From the UHGV virus genome UHGV-0073209: a stretch of DNA of 25,153 nt; one strand, given 5' to 3'. Positions 3,168-17,871 of this stretch are shown one piece after another. Position 1 is the first letter of the stretch. Every line of letters begins with the position of its first letter. The DNA comes from a virus. The notes below the pieces were generated by a model. It saw nothing but the letters and a program-made list of their open reading frames with translations, was not told the origin of the DNA and did not search any database. A program made the position numbers and the translations under genes.

Positions 3168-3431
3168 ATGAATAAACGCTACTCAAAACACGGCAAGTAT
3201 GCGGGAAGTATTCATATCGTGGCGGGCGATAACTTACCTAAAGTCGTTTGGATAAATAAGCACGCTGGAATTTGCTGCGGCTTCACCATCCGCGTATTAC
3301 CGCGCAGGGTAGGCAAGAAGCGTTATCAAATCATGAAAGATGGTGATTCTTTCGGAATTGACTTTGCGTTATCTGAAGCACGCAAAACGATAGATCGTAT
3401 TATTAATAACAACCGCTTCACCATTCATTAA
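3168..3431 (+). CDS. Hypothetical early protein (87 aa)
   Basis: ORF with AGGGA Shine-Dalgarno, tightly packed in the early operon. Confidence 0.6.
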   Translation: MNKRYSKHGKYAGSIHIVAGDNLPKVVWINKHAGICCGFTIRVLPRRVGKKRYQIMKDGDSFGIDFALSEARKTIDRIINNNRFTIH

Positions 3432-3447
3432 ATAACCGAGGCAGAAA

Positions 3448-3864
3448 ATGAAAAGAGAATACGCAGACAAAATTAACTCACTACTGCAATGCTTCCATTT
3501 CAATAAAGAGTTTCTGGAATGGAACCACGATTATTCACTTCAACTGTTGCGTCACGGCGCTTCCCACCTTTATCACTTCGCCATGCTCCAGGGAGAGACA
3601 GACAAAGCCACTTTGGAGGAACTCCGCAGCATTATTACCACCCTCACCAATGGCGAGATCCCTGAGCCATACGATTTGCTCTCACTGGAAGCCGAACAGC
3701 CAGAGCCGATTGACCCAAAAGGAAGGACTATGATGTTTGCTAATCCGCTGGCGGTATCAGTGGAACTTACGCCGGAGATGGTACAACAGCTGAAAGAGAC
3801 AATGGCGAAAATGGCGAATATCCCCCACAGAATGAGAAAGCCAACTCTCTATCCTCAGGGATAG
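3448..3864 (+). CDS. Hypothetical early protein (138 aa)
   Basis: ORF with GAGG Shine-Dalgarno upstream of ATG. Confidence 0.65.
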   Translation: MKREYADKINSLLQCFHFNKEFLEWNHDYSLQLLRHGASHLYHFAMLQGETDKATLEELRSIITTLTNGEIPEPYDLLSLEAEQPEPIDPKGRTMMFANPLAVSVELTPEMVQQLKETMAKMANIPHRMRKPTLYPQG

Positions 3865-3908: not shown

Positions 3909-4181
3909 ATGACTACCACCGCTGATTTACTGGCTTTGCGCCAGAAATTGAGATCAGAAAATAATTCTGCTACAGGGACGAGGACTGGTTTCAGTGCCGA
4001 TCATATTTACAGCCGATCAGGTGCCGCTATTTATCCGGCAATATTAAGTGATATTAACGATAACGGGTTTGAGGTGAGATGTATTAGAACGGGTGCTGTA
4101 TTTACCATTAAACCAAACGGATCCATATGTCACGGACTTATTAAGTCCTTAGAGCGCGAATGGTTCGGCACTAGCAGTTAA
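3909..4181 (+). CDS. Hypothetical early protein (90 aa)
   Basis: ORF with GGAG Shine-Dalgarno upstream of ATG. Confidence 0.55.
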   Translation: MTTTADLLALRQKLRSENNSATGTRTGFSADHIYSRSGAAIYPAILSDINDNGFEVRCIRTGAVFTIKPNGSICHGLIKSLEREWFGTSS

Positions 4182-6360: not shown

Positions 6361-7391
6361 ACCCTCACGCAGCACAGCACCTGCGCAACCTTATCGACGC
6401 CGGCCATATTGCGCCGGGCGTCGTTGACACCCGTTCAATTGAGGATGTAACCCCCAATGACCTTATCGGATTCAATCAGTGCCATTTCTTCGCCGGGATC
6501 GGCGGATGGTCGCTTGCCTTACGCCGCGCAGGATGGCCAGACAGTCGCCCGGCATGGACAGCATCATGCCCATGCCAGCCTTTCAGCGCGGCAGGCAAAG
6601 GACTTGGGTTTGCTGACGAGCGGCACTTATGGCCCTCCGCACATTGGCTTGTCGGCCAGCGCCGCCCTGTCGTGGTTTTTGGCGAGCAATCTGGCAGCGC
6701 TGACGCAGCGGACTGGATCGACCTTGTACAAGCTGACGTGGAAGCCCTGGGCTATGCCTTCGGGGCGGTTGCGTTTCCGTCTGCGAGCGTCGGCGCGCCG
6801 CACCAGAGAGACCGCGCTTATTGGGTGGCCGACGCCGGCCGCGAACGAGTTCGAACCGAAGGACTTGCAAAGGCTCTTGGAGAGAAGGGAGAAATTCGCG
6901 GCCAAGCATGGAAACAACGGGTTTGGCCTGACACTAGGGCAGGCGGTGCATCTGTTTGCGGGCTGGCCGACACCGACGGCAACGGACGGGAAAGGCGGTT
7001 ATCAGGGTGGACGAATCCGCAATGGGAAGCTATCGACGGACAGGCTAGATGTGGCTGCGCAGCTTGCGGGCTGGCCGACGCCGACCACGAGCAACGACCG
7101 CTCGCCATGTCCGCAAGAGGCTATGCGGACGTATCGCGACAATGGAACAAAGATTCAGAAGCGGCTTCAGGATGTAGCTGCGTTATGCGGCCCGGCCCGG
7201 TTAACGGCTTCTGGAGAGATGCTGATTGGCTCCACGGCCGGGATGGATGGTGGAGGCCAGTTAGACCCGGATCATTCCCGCTGGCTGATGGGATTCCCGC
7301 CAGAGTGGGAAGAGTGCGCGCCTACGGAAACGCTATCAACATTGAAGCGGCGGCAGCGTTCATAAAAGCGTATATGGCGGCGGAACAATGA
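6336..7391 (+). CDS. C5-cytosine DNA methyltransferase (phage Dcm-like); conserved motifs split across two reading frames
   Basis: In the annotated frame: YYNEIDPHAAQHLRNLI, FFAGIGG (motif I), PCQPFS (motif IV), VVVFGEQ (motif VI-like), GAPHQRDRAYWVA (motif VIII), AYGNAINIEAAAAFIKAY (motif X-like). Start taken as GTG 6336, 5 nt after GGGAGG; the track ORF starts at TTG 6279. The overlapping ORF 6457-7365 carries three GWPTP motifs and RWLMGFPPEW. Confidence 0.7.
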   Translation: MVAYYNEIDPHAAQHLRNLIDAGHIAPGVVDTRSIEDVTPNDLIGFNQCHFFAGIGGWSLALRRAGWPDSRPAWTASCPCQPFSAAGKGLGFADERHLWPSAHWLVGQRRPVVVFGEQSGSADAADWIDLVQADVEALGYAFGAVAFPSASVGAPHQRDRAYWVADAGRERVRTEGLAKALGEKGEIRGQAWKQRVWPDTRAGGASVCGLADTDGNGRERRLSGWTNPQWEAIDGQARCGCAACGLADADHEQRPLAMSARGYADVSRQWNKDSEAASGCSCVMRPGPVNGFWRDADWLHGRDGWWRPVRPGSFPLADGIPARVGRVRAYGNAINIEAAAAFIKAYMAAEQ

Positions 7392-9871
7392 CCGCCGCAT
7401 CAACTGCACCTCACATCGCGCAGCCAGCTCGCGCTGACGCCACCCGGTATGATTACGAGTGGCAGAAGCCGAGACCTGCCATTTATGTTGATAAGACTCC
7501 TGCTGTTGATCTGGTTGAACTTGGTCAAGAGAAGGAGTTTTTGGCGTGGGTAAAAGTCACCCTTGCGCCGCTACCTCGCTTTATTCGCCTGCGTCTGGCT
7601 TCCCGCGTCGACAGCATTCACACCATGAAGGGCAGACACATCGCCCGCCTGGCGCTGCGCGATATCATCCGCAGGGATCTGCCGCCTATCAATATGGTTA
7701 ATGAGCAATATGCTATTGCGATGACCGATGAGGCTAAATCTCAGGCCGATACGGCATTTAAGGGGTTAAACCCGCTTTATCACACGTTTAACACCCTGCA
7801 TGGGCTGGTTGAGCGCTTTAATCGCCTGCCGGATTTCACGCCGGAAGATGTCGAGCTGCTGGCGCAGGATATCGCCATCTATATGCGGTCTGTGCTGAGT
7901 GAAGTTCACGAAACTATAGAGACGCAGAGTGATCGCAAATATGCCGGGTACCTTTACACCGAAGCGGCCATCCTCGCGCGGCTTTTCTTCCTGACGCCAC
8001 CGAGCTGGGGAAAGTATTGTCGCGGCGCGTTGTTTATTGACGAAGCTACTACCGGCATCAGCAAGATGCTGGATGATCGCTACTGGCACCGCAACCTGAA
8101 AAAGTACGCCACGCGCTGGCGCGAGCATCTGCACATTGCTTTTGGCGATGTGAAACGGGGTGCTGCACCGTATTGCAGCAAGCACCACGTTGACGAGTGG
8201 GACGCCAGGCGCAAGCGCAGCCGCGCGATCATGGCCCGCCTTGAACTGGAAGACCAGGATACCAAAGAGCGCATTTCACTTATCGAGCAGATCGATAAGA
8301 GCATATCTAACCCGGCGTTGCGCCGCGTTGAACTTATGACCCGTATCGGCGGCTTTGAGAAAGTCGCCACCGAAAGCGGCTACGCGGGTCAGTTTTTTAC
8401 CCTGACAGCGCCATCCAAATACCACGCATATACCGTATTCGGTCATCGTAATGCCAAATGGAACGGCGCCAGCCCAAGATCCACGCAGCGCTACCTTAAT
8501 CGGGTATGGCAGAAAATCCGCGCAGAGCTGGCCCGCCGCGAAATCCCGGTTTTTGGTCTGCGCGTGGCCGAGTCTCACCACGACGGTACGCCGCACTGGC
8601 ATGGCCTGCTGTTCTCTTTGCCGGAACATTCCGCCGAGCTACTGGAAGTGATGGAAGACTACGCCACCCGCGAGGACGCGGAAGAGTTACAGGGTAAGCA
8701 TGGCAACCAGCCGCGCTTTGACATGAAGCCTATCGATCATGAAATCGGCAGCGCCACCGGCTACGTGGTGAAGTACATCAGTAAGAATATTGATGGCTAT
8801 GCGCTCGATGGTGAAACTGACGACGAGAGCGGCCGGCCACTCAAAGAAACATCTAAACATGCTACTGCCTGGGCTTCATGCTGGGGTATCCGTCAGTTTC
8901 AGTTTTTAGGCGGCGCGCCGGTGTCTGTCTGGCGCGAGTTGCGCCGGTTCCGCAATCAGGAGCAGGCCGACAAGATAAACCCACTGTTTGCCGAGCTACA
9001 CCGCGCGGCCGATGCTGGCGACTGGCAGCAATACACTCAATTACAGGGGGGCGCACTGGTTGCCCGCCGCGATCTGCCGCTGCGTATCTGGTACCAGCAG
9101 AAAGACGAGCCGAATGATTACGGTGAATATCGCGACCTCATCAAAGGCCTGATGATGCCAGCCGTTCAGATCCCCCCCATTGAAACCCGCCTGCATTCCT
9201 ACTCAATCGTAAGGAAGAAACCGGAGGTTTTAGACGACTCCGGGCAGGCAGTTGACTTTGATTTTGACCTTCCGGGCGCGTCTGCGCCCTCTAGGACTCG
9301 TGTCAATAACTGTACCGAGGTTAAAAAACGAACAAATCAGCCCCCCGGATCACCGCCATTAATGACAGTGCCAGCTGAGCGGGAAGAGCCTGAACAGTTC
9401 GAGATCGGTCAGTTAACACGCGAACAGCGAAAACAGGCGTTTGAAAGCATCCATAACCACAAACCGCAGCGGCATAAATCCCCCGCCGATGAGTTTGAGG
9501 CGCTGGCGTACAGCATTACCGTCGGCGACTGTACAGAATTTGACACCCGCAGGGCAGAAAGTTATCTCAAGGCCGCCCAGGAGATTAGGCGGAGAGAACA
9601 GGTTTTATCACCGGAAATCGCCGGACTGGCGGGCTTAGTTCAGTCATGGGCGAAAGTGAAGAAGGTGCTGATCAGTAAACCGCAGGCTATACAGCTGGCG
9701 CGCGGTAATGAAGTGACGGTGCTGGATACGGTATATCGAGCGCATCCGGTTACGGGTGAGTTGATCATTGCAGGCGTTGATAAACCGTGGCGCAAAACTC
9801 TTGCAGATCATAAGGCCGGCGAGCTAGCGGCTCGCTGGAAGAAGGCAGCTAAACGGAAAAATGAGAGGTAA
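7388..9871 (+). CDS. A: Rolling-circle replication initiator (P2 gpA-like, HUH endonuclease)
   Basis: 827 aa. HUH-type motif TPHWHGLLF and paired catalytic tyrosines in GYVVKYISKN. The start overlaps the methylase stop (ATGA). Confidence 0.9.
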   Translation: MTAASTAPHIAQPARADATRYDYEWQKPRPAIYVDKTPAVDLVELGQEKEFLAWVKVTLAPLPRFIRLRLASRVDSIHTMKGRHIARLALRDIIRRDLPPINMVNEQYAIAMTDEAKSQADTAFKGLNPLYHTFNTLHGLVERFNRLPDFTPEDVELLAQDIAIYMRSVLSEVHETIETQSDRKYAGYLYTEAAILARLFFLTPPSWGKYCRGALFIDEATTGISKMLDDRYWHRNLKKYATRWREHLHIAFGDVKRGAAPYCSKHHVDEWDARRKRSRAIMARLELEDQDTKERISLIEQIDKSISNPALRRVELMTRIGGFEKVATESGYAGQFFTLTAPSKYHAYTVFGHRNAKWNGASPRSTQRYLNRVWQKIRAELARREIPVFGLRVAESHHDGTPHWHGLLFSLPEHSAELLEVMEDYATREDAEELQGKHGNQPRFDMKPIDHEIGSATGYVVKYISKNIDGYALDGETDDESGRPLKETSKHATAWASCWGIRQFQFLGGAPVSVWRELRRFRNQEQADKINPLFAELHRAADAGDWQQYTQLQGGALVARRDLPLRIWYQQKDEPNDYGEYRDLIKGLMMPAVQIPPIETRLHSYSIVRKKPEVLDDSGQAVDFDFDLPGASAPSRTRVNNCTEVKKRTNQPPGSPPLMTVPAEREEPEQFEIGQLTREQRKQAFESIHNHKPQRHKSPADEFEALAYSITVGDCTEFDTRRAESYLKAAQEIRRREQVLSPEIAGLAGLVQSWAKVKKVLISKPQAIQLARGNEVTVLDTVYRAHPVTGELIIAGVDKPWRKTLADHKAGELAARWKKAAKRKNER

Positions 9872-9873
9872 AC

Positions 9874-10431
9874 ATGAAGCATTTCAGCACTAAAGCAATC
9901 AGATCAGTTATCGCCGAAATGAACCGGCAGGACGAGAAATGGGGAGCTGACCGCGATCAACATCCGTTCGTCTGGCAAACCATTCTTAGCGGAGAGGTCG
10001 GCGAATTCAGCCAGGCAATTTTACATGATGAATTTGGAGGCCATAAATCAGGAACGGCACGCGAAGAGATGGTGCAGATCGCCGCCGTCGCTCTCCAGAT
10101 TATCGAATATTACGATCGCCGCTGCGCGCCTGCGGCGGAATCTGAACAAGTTCACCCGGCGCTCGCCATGCCGGCCATCCCGGCGGGGCGTGAAAAAATC
10201 GGCGGCTGCGACTGGCTGGACTGGAATCAGCTGTCAGCGCTCGGTCTTATTGTCCGCATTAACGCAGAAATTCTTCACCCGCTTGGACTGGCAATTTTCC
10301 GTGATCCGGCTTCCGGCATCTCAGCGGGGGCCATGATTTCGCCAGATGGTAAATGGGAGTATGCGCCTGATGTTATTGATGGGCTGCGGGTAAGACTCTC
10401 CGATCACTCAGGAAAGCACGGTCACTTTTGA
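9874..10431 (+). CDS. Hypothetical protein (185 aa); N-terminus possibly a MazG-like all-alpha NTP pyrophosphohydrolase fold
   Basis: Starts 2 nt after the gpA stop with GAGAGG upstream. MNRQDEKWGADRDQHPFVWQTILSGEVGEFSQAI resembles the MazG-like EExxE helix pattern; this call is tentative. Confidence 0.65.
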   Translation: MKHFSTKAIRSVIAEMNRQDEKWGADRDQHPFVWQTILSGEVGEFSQAILHDEFGGHKSGTAREEMVQIAAVALQIIEYYDRRCAPAAESEQVHPALAMPAIPAGREKIGGCDWLDWNQLSALGLIVRINAEILHPLGLAIFRDPASGISAGAMISPDGKWEYAPDVIDGLRVRLSDHSGKHGHF

Positions 10432-10452
10432 CCGTGCTGGCCATTCTATCGA

Positions 10453-10491
10453 GCACCGCCATTTTTGGCGGTGCTGCAGGTGTTATTTTTT
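10453..10491 (+). terminator. Possible hairpin / weak intrinsic terminator between the 185-aa ORF and the second methylase
   Basis: 8-bp stem GCACCGCC/GGCGGTGC (10453-10460 and 10467-10474) with loop ATTTTT, then a T6 run at 10486-10491. The T-tract is displaced from the stem, so non-canonical. Confidence 0.3.
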
Positions 10492-10507
10492 GGGGAGCGA
10501 GAAGGCT

Positions 10508-11203
10508 ATGAGTTATCTGGGAAGCAAAGCGGCCAGCGGTGTTTATCAAAAAATCATCGCTGAAATGCCGCCGCACGATACCTACATTGAAACGCATTTA
10601 GGCGGCGGCGCGATCATGCTGCGCAAACCTCCGGCAAAAGTGAATTGGGGGATCGATATCGACCCGCAAACCATCGAGGCGTTTAACCAGAGCAACCCTG
10701 ATTTTCTGGATAGGATGGCGGACACCCTATTTATTGATGTTGGGGATGCCGTCGAGTTCTTGTGTTGTTTCGATTACGCCTCCGCCGGCCGCGTCTTAAT
10801 TTATTCTGATCCGCCTTATCTCCATGAAACGCGCTCCAGCTCCGCGCGCTATCGGCATGAGTACACCGTTGGTGATCATTACCGCCTGCTGGGATTACTC
10901 TGCTCGATGCCGGAAAACGTGAGCGTAATCGTATCGGGGTATCCTTCTTCGGTTTATGACAACGCCCTGCCGCGCTGGCGCAGCAAGGAGTTTCAGGCCA
11001 TGACGCGCGGCGGCGTTCGTACAGAGAAAATCTGGATGAACTACCCGGAAGGCCGGGCGTATTCGCACGCGTTCGCCGGTAAAGACTACAACGATCGCTA
11101 TCGGATTAAACGAAAAGCGCAGAGATGGAAGGAAAAATTTGCAGCGTTACCACCCGCCGAGAGGTTGGCGATCATGGTGGCGCTTGGTGAGGTCGAAATT
11201 TGA
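10508..11203 (+). CDS. Second N6-adenine DNA methyltransferase, Dam/D12-class, small phage type
   Basis: N-terminal YLGSKAASGV...IETHLGGGAIML and LIYSDPPYLHETR (DPPY motif). Start placed at ATG 10508; the track ORF starts at an upstream alternative codon (10490). Confidence 0.8.
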   Translation: MSYLGSKAASGVYQKIIAEMPPHDTYIETHLGGGAIMLRKPPAKVNWGIDIDPQTIEAFNQSNPDFLDRMADTLFIDVGDAVEFLCCFDYASAGRVLIYSDPPYLHETRSSSARYRHEYTVGDHYRLLGLLCSMPENVSVIVSGYPSSVYDNALPRWRSKEFQAMTRGGVRTEKIWMNYPEGRAYSHAFAGKDYNDRYRIKRKAQRWKEKFAALPPAERLAIMVALGEVEI

Positions 11204-11321
11204 TTACGTTATTTAATGGAAGAATGATTGTTGTGTGGTTGATGTTTGCCACTAGTATTGCTATTGTCTATTCATTGTTTGATGCTTGTTTGAGTCTAAA
11301 TAGAAATCTAATGGTGAAAAT

Positions 11322-11675
11322 ATGTTAAATAATCAGGATTATGCTTTCATTAACAATACAGTAAATTCAATTAAATCAACAATGATCAGCCTTGCTAGTG
11401 AGTACGGCCCTGATTATTGTTCAGATTTTCTGATTACGTTCGAATCAATTAAAAACAATACGAGTCGGCTACGACTAACGGATGTGACCATTAACGAATA
11501 CATATCGCTTATTCGTGGTCATAACATGAACGTTCAGAGCCATCCACAAGGATTGCTGGTACAAGCTCACGTTAGCTCGATTTTGCTGGCTCCGAATGAT
11601 GCTGTGGCCCTATCGAATTCTCTCCAGATGTTTCGTGGCCGCGCAGCCCTCAACGGCGATTACGAGAACATCTAA
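11322..11675 (+). CDS. Hypothetical protein (117 aa) encoded in an AT-rich island
   Basis: A 117-codon ORF in DNA of roughly one-third GC, where chance ORFs are unlikely. GGTGA Shine-Dalgarno-like upstream; AT-rich 118-bp upstream region. No recognisable domain. Confidence 0.6.
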   Translation: MLNNQDYAFINNTVNSIKSTMISLASEYGPDYCSDFLITFESIKNNTSRLRLTDVTINEYISLIRGHNMNVQSHPQGLLVQAHVSSILLAPNDAVALSNSLQMFRGRAALNGDYENI

Positions 11676-11708
11676 GCACGAAACGAAATGGTTTTCTATC
11701 GCGCAAAC

Positions 11709-11728
11709 TTGCACAAATTTGCACAATT
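11709..11728. promoter_or_regulatory. Tandem direct repeat TTGCACAA(A/T)T x2 near cos; possible terminase or regulator binding site
   Basis: TTGCACAAAT then TTGCACAATT, adjacent, in the non-coding block between the cargo region and portal gene. Confidence 0.3.
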
Positions 11729-11820
11729 TTTGAAACGATGTTTTTGCTATGCAGCGCCAGCACTGGCGGGGCATGGGCAGTCTGCGCAGAGTGCACAAAA
11801 AGAGGCATGTTTAGCGCGCA

Positions 11821-11840
11821 GGCGAGGCGGGGGAGCAAGC
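11821..11840. other. Putative cos site (cohesive-end region)
   Basis: GGCGAGGCGGGGGAGCAAGC; its first 12 nt match the P2 cohesive-end sequence as I recall it (GGCGAGGCGGGG...). Flanked by GCGCGC on both sides and located between the hotspot and Q, where cos lies in P2. Confidence 0.5.
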
Positions 11841-12074
11841 GCGCGCTTTGGGGGTAGGGAAGGGGTCGGTATACCTCGCCAAAAGCTGCCTGCCGGGCGC
11901 GCACTTTCGCGGTGCATCCGGCGAGCGCGTAGGAAAAAGCCCGCCAGAGTGGCGCTGGCTGCGTCTGGTTGGTGATATGACATTGAAGTGTTGCAGGTTG
12001 GCCGACATGGCCAGGAATGGTGATGCTGCAGGTCGGTACTGCACCGCCGGGAATGGCAGTGCGGTACCTTCAGA

Positions 12075-13127
12075 TCACTTCGGGGTTTCCAGCAGGGCGT
12101 AAGGGTTGAAGCGGATCACCTCTTCACCGAGCCAGTCGTTAACATGCTTCATCGCTTCCATGACCGGTGTCAGTTCGTTGACCGCGAATACCCTGGCTGC
12201 CTTCTCGACGTCGCCGAATGATCCGTTGCCTTCAGGTATGGCGCCCATCAGTTGCGGCGGCACGCGGTGAGCCGCAAGCATGTCGTCACGCGTGGAGGAC
12301 TTCACACCCACAAACTCATCCTTTGCCGATATCTGGCTGAAGGGCAGGATCTGCACGGCATCTTTGCCGACACCGGGCGCACTCAGCAGGATGTTTTTAA
12401 ATGCCCCGCCGCGCCGGGTATCGGTCAATGTCTTCTTCAGGTTCTCCAGGCTTTCCCCGTCAGCCACTGCGCTGCTGACGTAGACAATACAGCCGGCATG
12501 CGACCCGTTGTCGTAGTAGAGCTTGCGGAACTTGTCGGCGGAGTGCGCCAGGTTCGCCGACAGCAGGCCGGCGAAATACTCCGGCATGCCGTAGATCTCC
12601 TGGTGAATATCCGGGTTGATCACATGGCACACCGAACCGGTTTCGAACGGGTGGTCATCAAGGCCAGACTGAATAAACCAGTAGGTGTCTAGGTCGGAAC
12701 CGCGCCGGGTGTACTTCGCCAGCGAGTTACGAAAGCCCATTGGCCCATTCAGGCGGTTGCGCCGCATCTCAAGGTACGCATTGCCGAACACAAACCAGTC
12801 GAGCGCAAAGGCGCTGAACGCCTGGCGCGATAACAGTTTGTGCGGGATAAAGCATCCGGCCAGCACGTTACGCTTGAAGAACAGCGCCGACTGGTGCCAG
12901 CTCGCATAGCCGAACTGGCGGGCCAGTCCGTACCAGCTGATCGGCGTCTCGTAGTACCGGCCATTATTGGCGCAGTACATGTTATCCAGCAGGTCATGAG
13001 CACCGGTCACCGGCCACGGGCCGTCGAACGTGAACGCGCTCAGGCCGGGGGCCGACTTCAGCGCGTCGGCGAGGTCGGCTTGCTCTCTGGCATACTGCCT
13101 GCCGCGCGGGGATTTTCGTCTGCTCAT
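12075..13127 (-). CDS. Q: Portal protein (P2 gpQ-like)
   Basis: 350-aa ORF divergent from the capsid operon. Its start overlaps the terminase stop (ATGA at 13125-13129), the Q-P arrangement of P2. Confidence 0.88.
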   Translation of the reverse strand: MSRRKSPRGRQYAREQADLADALKSAPGLSAFTFDGPWPVTGAHDLLDNMYCANNGRYYETPISWYGLARQFGYASWHQSALFFKRNVLAGCFIPHKLLSRQAFSAFALDWFVFGNAYLEMRRNRLNGPMGFRNSLAKYTRRGSDLDTYWFIQSGLDDHPFETGSVCHVINPDIHQEIYGMPEYFAGLLSANLAHSADKFRKLYYDNGSHAGCIVYVSSAVADGESLENLKKTLTDTRRGGAFKNILLSAPGVGKDAVQILPFSQISAKDEFVGVKSSTRDDMLAAHRVPPQLMGAIPEGNGSFGDVEKAARVFAVNELTPVMEAMKHVNDWLGEEVIRFNPYALLETPK

Positions 13128-14848
13128 CAGTACTCCATAACAGTCATAGTGTTTCCGCCTTCCTGACCCAGCGGCTCGTTAACGGTGGCGAGCATGGTCG
13201 CCCAGGCGAGATCGCCGTGACTCACGCCCCGGGCGCGGTCGGTGTCGTAGGTGATGACGCCGCCGGGCGTGACCACCTTGCGCACGGCACAGAAAGCGGT
13301 GATGAGGTCGTATTCGCCGCGGTCATACTCCCAGCGGCCAGCGCGGATCAGTTGCAGCATTTTCAGTACCAGCATGCGCTTGCTGGCTGGCGAGAACTGG
13401 TAGCACACCGCCGCAGGGAAACGCTTCCTCACGAGCTGATAAACCGCCTCACCAATGCCGCTGCCGTCGATACCGATGTGTTGCACGTTGTAGCGTGTGA
13501 GCATGTTAATAATCATGGCGGCCTGCGCCTCAAACTCCATGCCGCGTACGCGAATGGTTTCAATCGTGCGGAACTTGCCGCTGGGGATCAGTGGCGCCGC
13601 GTTAACAGAGATGGCCCCGCTGTCGCCTTTGCCGCTGGAGCCGTTGGGGTCGTAGCCAATCCACACCGGGCGATCGGCCATTGGTCGCATGGCGTAAGGT
13701 TTCCAGTCCGGCCACTCGTCGTAACCGTCTGCGCCGCAGCTCAGCAGCATGTTGTAGTCAAAGGCGGTCTCACCGTTCTTGATGAAGGTGCAGGCGTAGA
13801 GGTTGTCATACTCTTCCGGGCTGTTTTCTTCGCGGATTTCGTCAATGTCAGTCAGATCCCAGCCGTTATCGACCGCATCCTGCAACGTGACGATCTGGCG
13901 CCAGATTTTGTCCGGGCACATCAGCCCGCTGTTAAGCGTCTTCCAGGACGTGTCGAACTCCACGCGCTTACCGTGGCTGCGGCCTTTGTTGAAGGCTTCA
14001 CCAGACCAGAAGGGGTACGCTTCGTGACTCTCTGCCGATGGCGTGGAGAAGTAGGTGCGCGTCAGTCCTTTCAGCGTCGCCATCGCACCAGCCACTTTCT
14101 TCAGGTTGGCAAACTGCCCGACCCAGAAAAATTCGTCAAAGTACAGGTTGCCGGTGTATGACTGCGCGGTTGCGGCTGACGTGCCGAGAAAGTGCAGCTC
14201 CGCGCCGTTGAACAGCTGGATCATGTCACCGCCCTTTAGCTCAACATCAACTTCAGCAGCAGCGGCACGAATGAAGCTGCGGAACTGGTACGCCTGACGA
14301 CGACTCGCCGACAGGAAGATCTGGTTGAGCTGGTGCTTGTATTTCACGTCACCCGTTAGCGCACGCAGCAGCGCCTCGCGGGCAAAGTACCAGGTCGCGC
14401 CGACCTGCCGGCTCTTCAGAATGGCCCGGTTACGGTGATGAAGGTTTTCATACCAGGTTTTTTGGTGCCAGTGCAGTGAGTCGATGATGCTGGCACGCAG
14501 CGCGGAGATCTGCGCCTCTGAAAAGAAGTTTTGTTTCTTGCGGATCTTCTTCTTCGGCTGCGTCACTGGCGTGCCGTTATCCAGCTTTTTGAGCTGTCGG
14601 GTCAGCAGGTCAATTTCCTTGAAGTCGCCCCCGGTCTTTGTGTCCTTACTGGTGAGCTGGATCAGTCGTGCATCAATGGACGTCGTGACGCGCTGAACTG
14701 GCGGCGTGCTGTCCCATTCGTCACGTTTTTTCCATGAGTAAATCGTATTCTGATTGATACCCATCAGGCGCGCGATTTCCGCCGGGGGGTACCCCTGCCA
14801 GTAGAGCTGCCGTGCCCGCAGCATGATGAATGCTTCTTCAGTCGCCAT
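13127..14848 (-). CDS. P: Terminase large (ATPase) subunit (P2 gpP-like)
   Basis: Start placed at the ATG at 14846-14848 with GGAGGA upstream, giving MATEEAFIMLRARQLYWQGYPPAEIARLMGINQNTIYSWKKRDEWD, a typical gpP N-terminus. The track ORF extends to 14920. Confidence 0.88.
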   Translation of the reverse strand: MATEEAFIMLRARQLYWQGYPPAEIARLMGINQNTIYSWKKRDEWDSTPPVQRVTTSIDARLIQLTSKDTKTGGDFKEIDLLTRQLKKLDNGTPVTQPKKKIRKKQNFFSEAQISALRASIIDSLHWHQKTWYENLHHRNRAILKSRQVGATWYFAREALLRALTGDVKYKHQLNQIFLSASRRQAYQFRSFIRAAAAEVDVELKGGDMIQLFNGAELHFLGTSAATAQSYTGNLYFDEFFWVGQFANLKKVAGAMATLKGLTRTYFSTPSAESHEAYPFWSGEAFNKGRSHGKRVEFDTSWKTLNSGLMCPDKIWRQIVTLQDAVDNGWDLTDIDEIREENSPEEYDNLYACTFIKNGETAFDYNMLLSCGADGYDEWPDWKPYAMRPMADRPVWIGYDPNGSSGKGDSGAISVNAAPLIPSGKFRTIETIRVRGMEFEAQAAMIINMLTRYNVQHIGIDGSGIGEAVYQLVRKRFPAAVCYQFSPASKRMLVLKMLQLIRAGRWEYDRGEYDLITAFCAVRKVVTPGGVITYDTDRARGVSHGDLAWATMLATVNEPLGQEGGNTMTVMEY

Positions 14849-15005
14849 TTGTCCTCCTCGCTTCCTGCCGGGGAGATTAACCCGCGCGCGCGTGCCCTTT
14901 CGCCCGCTTTTGGTTGTCACAGTTCCCTCACAACAACAACGCGTTGAGCGCGTGCGGCACCGCCTGCCATCATCACCGGGAACTCAACCAGATGAGCAAA
15001 AGAAC

Positions 15006-16956: not shown

Positions 16957-17871
16957 ATGCTGACACCGGCACAAAAACATTTTCAGAGGGTCATGGCCGA
17001 GCGTCATGGCAAAACAGACGAGCAGTCCGATACCGCGCGGACGGCGCACGAGCAGATCATGCATCGGCTACGCATGGATCAGAGTGCATTAAAGCGAGTG
17101 CAGTCTGACCAGGCGAAAGCGGCGATGAAACGCCAGTTGCTGCCGCATTACGAGGGCTGGATCGAGGGCACGCTCGACGGCGACAGCGGCCGACAGGATG
17201 AGGTGATCGTCACCCTGATGGTGTGGGCGATCGATGCCGGTGATTACGCGCTGGCCGCCCGCATTGGTCGCTATGTCGTCACGCATGGTCTGCTGATGCC
17301 CGACCGCTTCAACCGTACCGCCGCAACCGTTCTGGTCGATGAGATTTGCGATCCGATACTGGTGCAGGTCAAGGCAGACGATACCACCGACGTCACACCG
17401 TATCTGGCGGTGCTCGATGAGGTCGCGGACTTTACCGCAGGCAGCGATATGCCCGACGTGGTTCGCGCCAAGCTGTGCAAAGCACGAGCCTTTGCGCTGC
17501 GTAACGGCACAACCGAAGAGCAGACCACCGCGCTGGCACTGTTGCGCCAGGCGCTGACGCTGGATGCGGGCGCCGGGGTGAAAAAAGAGATTGAGCGACT
17601 GGCCCGCGTGGTTAAGAAAGCGGCTGCACAGACAGGTACTGACGGTACCGATAGCACCGATGGTTCAGATGGCGGAAAAGGCACCGAAGGCGCTGGCGAT
17701 GCTGGCGGCGATACCGCAGCGGACGGCGCAGGTGCAGGCGAAGCTGCAGCATCGTCAGATCCGGTGGTAGCGGACAGCGCCACAGCGACCAAAACCACCC
17801 GCAAAAGCCCAACCCGTAAACCGGCAGCGCGCAAAACAACAGCGAAAAAAACGCCTGCCGCCAAAAAATAA
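16957..17871 (+). CDS. M: Terminase small/endonuclease subunit (P2 gpM-like) with extended low-complexity C-terminal tail
   Basis: MLTPAQKHFQRVMAE..., LLPHYEGWIEG, MPDVVRAKL and AGVKKEIERL parallel P2 gpM. The C-terminus carries a G/D/T-rich acidic stretch followed by a K/R/T-rich basic tail. Confidence 0.9.
   Translation: MLTPAQKHFQRVMAERHGKTDEQSDTARTAHEQIMHRLRMDQSALKRVQSDQAKAAMKRQLLPHYEGWIEGTLDGDSGRQDEVIVTLMVWAIDAGDYALAARIGRYVVTHGLLMPDRFNRTAATVLVDEICDPILVQVKADDTTDVTPYLAVLDEVADFTAGSDMPDVVRAKLCKARAFALRNGTTEEQTTALALLRQALTLDAGAGVKKEIERLARVVKKAAAQTGTDGTDSTDGSDGGKGTEGAGDAGGDTAADGAGAGEAAASSDPVVADSATATKTTRKSPTRKPAARKTTAKKTPAAKK

Follow-up and report, generated by a model that had tools for sequence, protein, structure and literature searches.

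A probable P2-family cos site with a phased repeat array on its cargo side

The window analysed here is a stretch of viral DNA of 25,153 nucleotides. A non-coding gap of 399 bp (11676-12074) extends in it from the stop codon of the ORF at 11322-11675 to the stop codon of the portal gene Q at 12075. We consider it probable that this gap is the cos site of a P2-like prophage, cut by the phage terminase and recognized through a repeat array, with Klebsiella phages and prophages as its closest relatives. The comparisons support the site as a routine member of the P2 family in a diverged lineage. The modest lead from this work is that a phased repeat array with a lineage-dependent motif flanks the P2-like and P4-like cos.

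Gene context and predicted cut site

The order of genes around the gap, gpA, cargo, cos, Q, P, O, N and M, is that of a P2-like (Peduoviridae) prophage. Gene gpA (7388-9871) matches PF05840, and three ORFs fill the cargo side (9874-11675) between it and the gap. To the right, Q (12075-13127, minus strand; phrog_68, E = 2.7e-140; PF04860) reads towards the gap. The gap thus occupies the place of cos in the P2 family, between the cargo downstream of gpA and Q. The cognate P2-type terminase subunits are encoded nearby, the large subunit gpP at 13127-14920 (minus strand; PF03237, PF17289, PF06056) and the small subunit gpM at 16957-17871 (PF05944, phrog_74). The scaffold O and the capsid protein N are also encoded in the window.

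Conservation was followed in a footprint of 48 non-redundant relatives with a Q at least 75% identical to that of the window. A sequence-only reading had described the gap as about 400 bp with overlapping, junk-like ORFs, and this description held. None of the five overlapping ORFs had a match in Pfam and each is open in at most 21 of the 48 relatives, and they were ruled out as genes. An Rfam scan of 10500-13000 at E <= 1 matched no family. The same reading had called the block GC-rich, which stands only against the cargo at 11204-11675 (39% GC). The gap has 58.4% GC, compared with 55.1% for the whole window, and is no richer than the adjacent Q-P genes (59.0%); its left 85 bp, which bear the repeats, have 41%.

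On the Q side of the gap, a terminator-like hairpin with a T-run lies at 11934-11959 on the minus strand, about 115 nt past the Q stop codon, and would belong to the leftward P-Q operon. It is only partly conserved among the relatives. In P2 and 186 the terminators tQ and tW are annotated in the same interval between Q and cos, but the P2 terminator lies within 6 nt of the Q stop. A strong 12-bp hairpin at 12035-12068 (minus strand; RNA fold z-score -3.1) is found just downstream of the Q stop, within a set of roughly 35-nt direct repeats that occupies the 3' untranslated DNA of Q (about 11989-12068). This stretch is poorly conserved among the relatives, and the hairpin is probably incidental.

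The position of the P2 cos between old and Q and the 19-nt P2 cohesive ends, on which the sequence-only reading had drawn, were both borne out by the P2 record. There, cosL occupies bases 1-19, GGCGAGGCGGGGAAAGCAC, and is followed by TGCGCGCT. On the right-hand side, Q begins after 187 bp and reads towards cos, and old/tin are placed to the left of cosR. The cohesive-end sequence given in PMC3931495 agrees with the record. The same 19 nt are found in P4, and 186 and PSP3 have GGCGTGGCGGGGAAAGCAT. The 55-bp P2/P4 cos core of Ziermann and Calendar (1990), as it is relayed in PMC9594776, PMC5694545 and PMC3931495, corresponds to the stretch that P2 and P4 have in common when their ends are joined (-29 to +26, 52/55 identical).

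Alignment to the cos of P2 and 186 had been proposed as a check of the reading as a packaging site. The equivalent of the 55-bp core lies at 11792-11846 on the plus strand, from -29 to +26 of the predicted top-strand nick, and is identical to the P2 core at 38 of 55 positions without a gap. Its landmarks are in register with those of P2, namely TGCA with an A-run at -29, a shared 12-mer and GCGCGC at +20. The 12-mer, GGCGAGGCGGGG, occurs once in the 25-kb window. The sequence GGCGAGGCGGGGGAGCAAGC was found at 11821-11840 with GCGCGC on both sides, as the sequence-only reading had stated. The 19-nt unit within it (11821-11839, plus strand), GGCGAGGCGGGGGAGCAAG, is the predicted 5' cohesive end, as judged from the ends annotated for P2, 186 and PSP3. 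Of its 19 bases, 14 agree with the mapped P2 cohesive end, among them the first 12 without interruption. Together with the P2-like gene order, the similarity of the core and the match of the overhang make a packaging site the likely interpretation, and the overall layout is that of 186.

A putative cosN-like nicking site was delimited at 11813-11847. AGCGCGC (11813-11819) and GCGCGCT (11841-11847) form a perfect 7-bp inverted repeat, and each arm sits one base outside a predicted nick. By analogy, the gpP/gpM terminase would nick the top strand between 11820 and 11821 and the bottom strand between 11839 and 11840, leaving 5' overhangs of 19 nt with the sequence GGCGAGGCGGGGGAGCAAG. The inverted repeat would place a symmetric nuclease, and such symmetry around the nicks is expected for a dimeric nuclease. 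A G-rich right flank, TTGGGGGTAGGGAAGGGGT (11848-11866, plus strand), is also conserved in the footprint. Its consensus in the loci of the window type is GGGGg...gga.ggg and is not common to P2 or P4.

The cos sites of P2, 186 and P4 share with the window the location between cargo slot and Q, the GCGCGC right flank, the first 12 overhang bases, a repeat with an A-run at -29, distal repeats at -121/-111/-101 and a P2-type terminase in cis. In contrast, five of the last seven overhang bases differ between the window (GAGCAAG) and P2 (AAAGCAC). The left flank is AGCGCGCA in the window, where it completes the perfect inverted repeat around the nicks, and GCGGGCG in P2. At -29, P2 and P4 carry TGCATTAAAA where the window has TGCACAAAAA, and the repeat motif is TGCACAA instead of TGCAT. 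Judged from these differences in overhang, flank and motif and from the core identity of 38/55, cross-packaging with the P2 terminase appears doubtful.

Among phage records, that of Klebsiella phage 3LV2017 (NC_047817, Reginaelenavirus) comes closest. This phage and related Klebsiella prophages are 87.5% identical to the window over 11687-12150 and 91% over 11710-11869, and their 19-nt sequence, flanks and repeats are identical to those of the window. The cargo to the left of the 3LV2017 cos is unrelated to that of the window; the leftward ORFs of the slot are unannotated in its record, as is cos. Near-identical packaging genes were found in two Klebsiella genomes (L353, L383). As a side observation, the portal of 3LV2017 is annotated with about 300 aa, whereas the DNA (L003 3385-4284) encodes a 346-aa match that is 95% identical to the 350-aa Q of the window. 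The gene call in the record looks truncated.

It is unlikely that the site is a relic, either because the prophage is defective or because the true cleavage positions or overhang length are unlike those of P2, which would make the 19-nt prediction wrong in detail. The ends of this cos type are predicted ones, the records of close relatives are not opened at cos, and among the phage records none annotates cos at this type of site. An orphan cos of the window type in Kosakonia oryziphila (described below) suggests that such sites can outlive the phage. Against this, the ORFs of Q, P, O, N and M are full-length with strong family matches, the nick region is almost invariant among the 48 relatives, and between each predicted nick and its symmetric flank there is exactly one base. 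A cos site cut in the manner of P2 is the preferred reading.

The repeat array left of the nick site

A tandem repeat at 11709-11728 had been noticed before. Indeed, TTGCACAA starts at 11709 and again 10 nt further on, at 11719, and nowhere else in the 25 kb. The count alone is not significant, as two or more copies were obtained in 24 of 100 shuffles; the significance of the repeats lies rather in their adjacency and in their conservation in relatives. The shorter motif TGCACAA occurs three times in the 25-kb window, at 11710, 11720 and 11792, all within 90 bp.

Ordered from the cargo side, the putative array begins with a degenerate outermost repeat, CGCGCAA (11700-11706, plus strand), which sits at -121 when counted from the predicted nick. 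Next comes the tandem repeat TTGCACAAAT/TTGCACAATT (11709-11728, plus strand), in which TGCACAA starts at -111 (11710) and -101 (11720). One helical turn separates the two starts, which form the distal part of the array. Across the 48 relatives this tandem repeat is the best-conserved block left of the core. A palindrome, CGCCAG-CA-CTGGCG (11755-11768), lies at -66 to -53, midway between distal and proximal repeats. On the proximal side a degenerate repeat, TGCGCAG (11783-11789, plus strand), is found at -38, where 20 of 57 loci of the window type have TGCACAA. The last repeat, TGCACAAAAA (11792-11801, plus strand), places TGCACAA at -29 and opens the equivalent of the 55-bp core.

In the footprint four conserved blocks were seen, at 11700-11733, 11755-11768, 11791-11802 and 11813-11866. 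Conservation is weak outside these blocks, and the spacers and most of the Q-side DNA drift. The central palindrome is conserved in the footprint and also in the consensus of both cos types (cCag..c.gGcg and g.cag..ctgg). Its sequence is not IHF-like and it is absent from P2 itself. Possibly it is a bend point or a site for a second protein.

We then compared about 200 oriented loci with a nick-site match, taken from two scans of viral contigs and one scan of species-representative genomes. Left of the nick these loci have two to three copies of a short motif with a spacing of exactly 10 nt at about -121/-111/-101, and usually a CCAG-NN-CTGG palindrome near -60. Closer to the nick the motif recurs once or twice (at -38 or -35 and at -29) ahead of an A-run. 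Repeats in the register -121/-111/-101 with a proximal copy at -29 were retained among about 120 non-redundant loci, and P2, 186, PSP3 and P4 share this register. In 186 and PSP3, whose cohesive ends are annotated as bases 1-19, three TGCAT copies, the palindrome and TGCAacTGCATTAAAA are found at the same distances as in the window.

The window cos type was defined by a G as the 13th base and by the right flank CGCGCGC. Among its 57 non-redundant loci, TGCAC was found at -101 in 51 and at -111 in 28, and TGCA at -121 in 27. For the P2 type (64 non-redundant loci) TGCAT was counted 41 times at -101, 38 times at -111 and 58 times at -29. Counts at -29 are biased for the window type because this position formed part of the second scan pattern; the distal positions were in no scan pattern. 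The register survives dereplication on the spacer alone at <80% identity. Thus the spacer length stays constant while the spacer sequence drifts. Shared descent could account for part of the conservation of register.

The motif itself depends on the cos type. Distal and proximal motifs are TGCAT/TGCAT in the P2 type and TGCACAA/TGCACAA in the window type. Three Comamonas-type loci (L108, L339, L369) have the same layout with CCGTCA as the distal and CCGTCG as the proximal motif. A further cos type (L004, L051, L090), again with the same layout, carries distal repeats containing GGATC that do not match its own proximal motif.

One locus of the window type stands apart from any phage. In Kosakonia oryziphila (L325; NZ_FMBC01000025, about 3300-3470) an orphan cos with one distal repeat is neighboured by a Tlde1-domain gene and by chromosomal fkpA-like, L9 and S6 genes, and phage genes are absent for 4 kb around it, so that a prophage remnant is the probable explanation.

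Role of the array and its possible readers

The sequence-only reading had assigned terminase recognition elements to the gap. This is plausible, given that the repeats are kept in register in the relatives and in P4-like satellites. We infer that the array is a cosB-like recognition site for terminase, located outside the published 55-bp core; its register is conserved, its motif varies between cos types and satellites retain it, all of which points in this direction. The short motifs lie on one side of the nick only, and their position is conserved across non-redundant loci of two cos types.

The cos of lambda is organized as cosQ-cosN-cosB, with R sites for gpNu1 and a site for host IHF between the R sites. 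By analogy, the window would share with it a symmetric nicking site, a one-sided array of short motifs and a central element between two clusters. The two sites have no sequence similarity, the small terminase of the window (PF05944) is of a different family, and the predicted overhang of 19 nt compares with 12 nt in lambda. A further difference is that P2 is reported to package from monomeric circles.

In the proposed mechanism, recognition would occur through an array on the cargo side only, made of three TGCACAA-type repeats at -121/-111/-101, a palindrome at about -60, one or two copies at -38/-29 and the A-run. The copies at -101 and -29 start 72 bp apart. This is about seven helical turns, so that both clusters lie on the same face of the DNA. 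The DNA could bend so that a terminase oligomer binds the two clusters on a single face, much as gpNu1 does with the R sites of lambda cosB, and the palindrome midway between the clusters could mark the bend. The most likely reader would be an oligomer of the small subunit gpM; alternatively, the N-terminal helix-turn-helix of gpP could take this role. The bound complex would then nick symmetrically at the two positions given above. The cargo end should be the first to enter the capsid, provided that terminase remains on the end with the repeats.

The helix-turn-helix of gpP corresponds to PF06056 at residues 34-88 (window 14660-14820), with weaker matches to HTH_23 and HTH_28, and makes gpP, next to gpM, a candidate for reading the cos repeats. 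When the two proteins were examined for residues that are fixed within a cos type, such residues were distributed evenly over both and did not point to either protein as the reader. A PDB sequence search with gpM and the gpP N-terminus returned no useful structure and no small terminase of the gpM type. In the literature that we found, protein binding at cos is not shown for P2-type phages. No description of the phased array was found in the literature searched, which did not extend to Ziermann and Calendar (1990) or the P2 review of Christie and Calendar.

The published core of 55 bp does not include the distal repeats, which may therefore be accessory or even dispensable. Longer cos flanks in a cosmid gave better transduction, and the authors suggest that the flanks may contribute (PMC9594776). 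This result is compatible with an accessory role of the distal repeats.

Instead of being read by terminase, the repeats might be the target of a nucleoid or bending protein of the host, or serve only as intrinsically curved DNA. The phasing by 10 bp, two T-runs (11727-11731, 11741-11745) and the central palindrome do have an architectural look, and in lambda cosB host IHF acts between the R sites. Such a host factor predicts a single motif per host. In contrast, the motif differs by cos type (TGCAT, TGCACAA or CCGTCA), and Salmonella harbours phages or prophages of both the TGCAT and the TGCACAA type, as do related Enterobacterales. The occurrence of both types in Salmonella and its relatives argues against a host factor. 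Furthermore, distal and proximal motifs change together, which fits a single phage-specific reader of both clusters. We therefore regard a host factor as improbable and keep terminase as the putative reader.

A role of the TTGCACAA repeats as operators or promoter elements for the adjacent cargo genes, comparable to the P2 old promoter, and not as packaging signals is very unlikely: the last cargo ORF of the window reads towards the repeats, which places them at its 3' end, a promoter scan of 11676-12074 on both strands revealed no promoter-like site, the register is kept while the cargo differs entirely between loci, the repeats of P4 and P4-like satellites lie downstream of psu where a leftward gene is absent, and those of 186 lie beyond the annotated t95b terminator. 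What speaks for this role comes from P2, where the annotated starts of the old-tin transcripts are closely preceded by the distal TGCAT copies and the first of these copies overlaps a -35-like hexamer deduced from the sequence (NC_001895 33449-33479; L002 2450-2480). In P2, packaging array and cargo promoter may share DNA, and the array could have a second role there. For the window, the repeats are best explained as terminase recognition elements.

The cargo slot and P4-like satellites

That the site fixes the boundary of the cargo slot had also been proposed, and the comparison agrees with this. Homology with the relatives begins at about 11687-11700, at the outermost repeat, and left of there the loci differ. 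The site thus fixes the right edge of the slot at about 11700. The hotspot bounded by the outermost repeat is the one described by Rousset et al. (PMC9122126). The cos call therefore places both the predicted ends of the prophage genome and the right edge of this cargo (defence-hotspot) slot.

The last cargo ORF (11322-11675, plus strand, 117 aa, about 36-39% GC) borders the cos region on the left and lies outside cos. It had no match in Pfam, PHROGs, PADLOC or NCBIfam, and by its position it could be an uncharacterised hotspot gene. The ORF at 10490-11203 (plus strand, 237 aa, TTG start) showed a partial match to models of Dam-type/type II N6-adenine methyltransferases, below the curated cut-offs. 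It may encode a truncated or diverged methyltransferase.

The cos is reported to be the sole region common to P4-like satellites and their helper phages (PMC9122126). In P4 and three P4-like satellites (L043, L059, L097) three distal TGCAT copies are kept at the same distance, and the primase of one of them (L059) is only 58% identical to that of P4. When viral contigs were searched with the P4 primase, near-identical E. coli P4 elements were the only matches, and none of the window-type loci collected from viral contigs resembled a satellite.

The comparison suggests that the functional cos of the P2 family extends about 125 bp into the cargo side and that cos types can be told apart by the repeat motif as well as by the overhang. 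If true, this would help in designing P2/P4-type cosmids and transducing particles and in predicting helper-satellite compatibility in Klebsiella and related hosts. As a tentative and rather doubtful extension, the array motif (TGCAT, TGCACAA or CCGTCA) might define packaging-compatibility groups and thereby which satellites exploit which helpers.

A single candidate for a satellite using the window cos type was found, in Scandinavium sp. (L380; NZ_JBFLVD010000017, 4000-4175). Its window-type cos, GGCGAGGCGGGGGAACAAG, has the full repeat array and adjoins a primase gene (phrog_1139, DUF927) and an integrase gene, with neither gpA nor Q.
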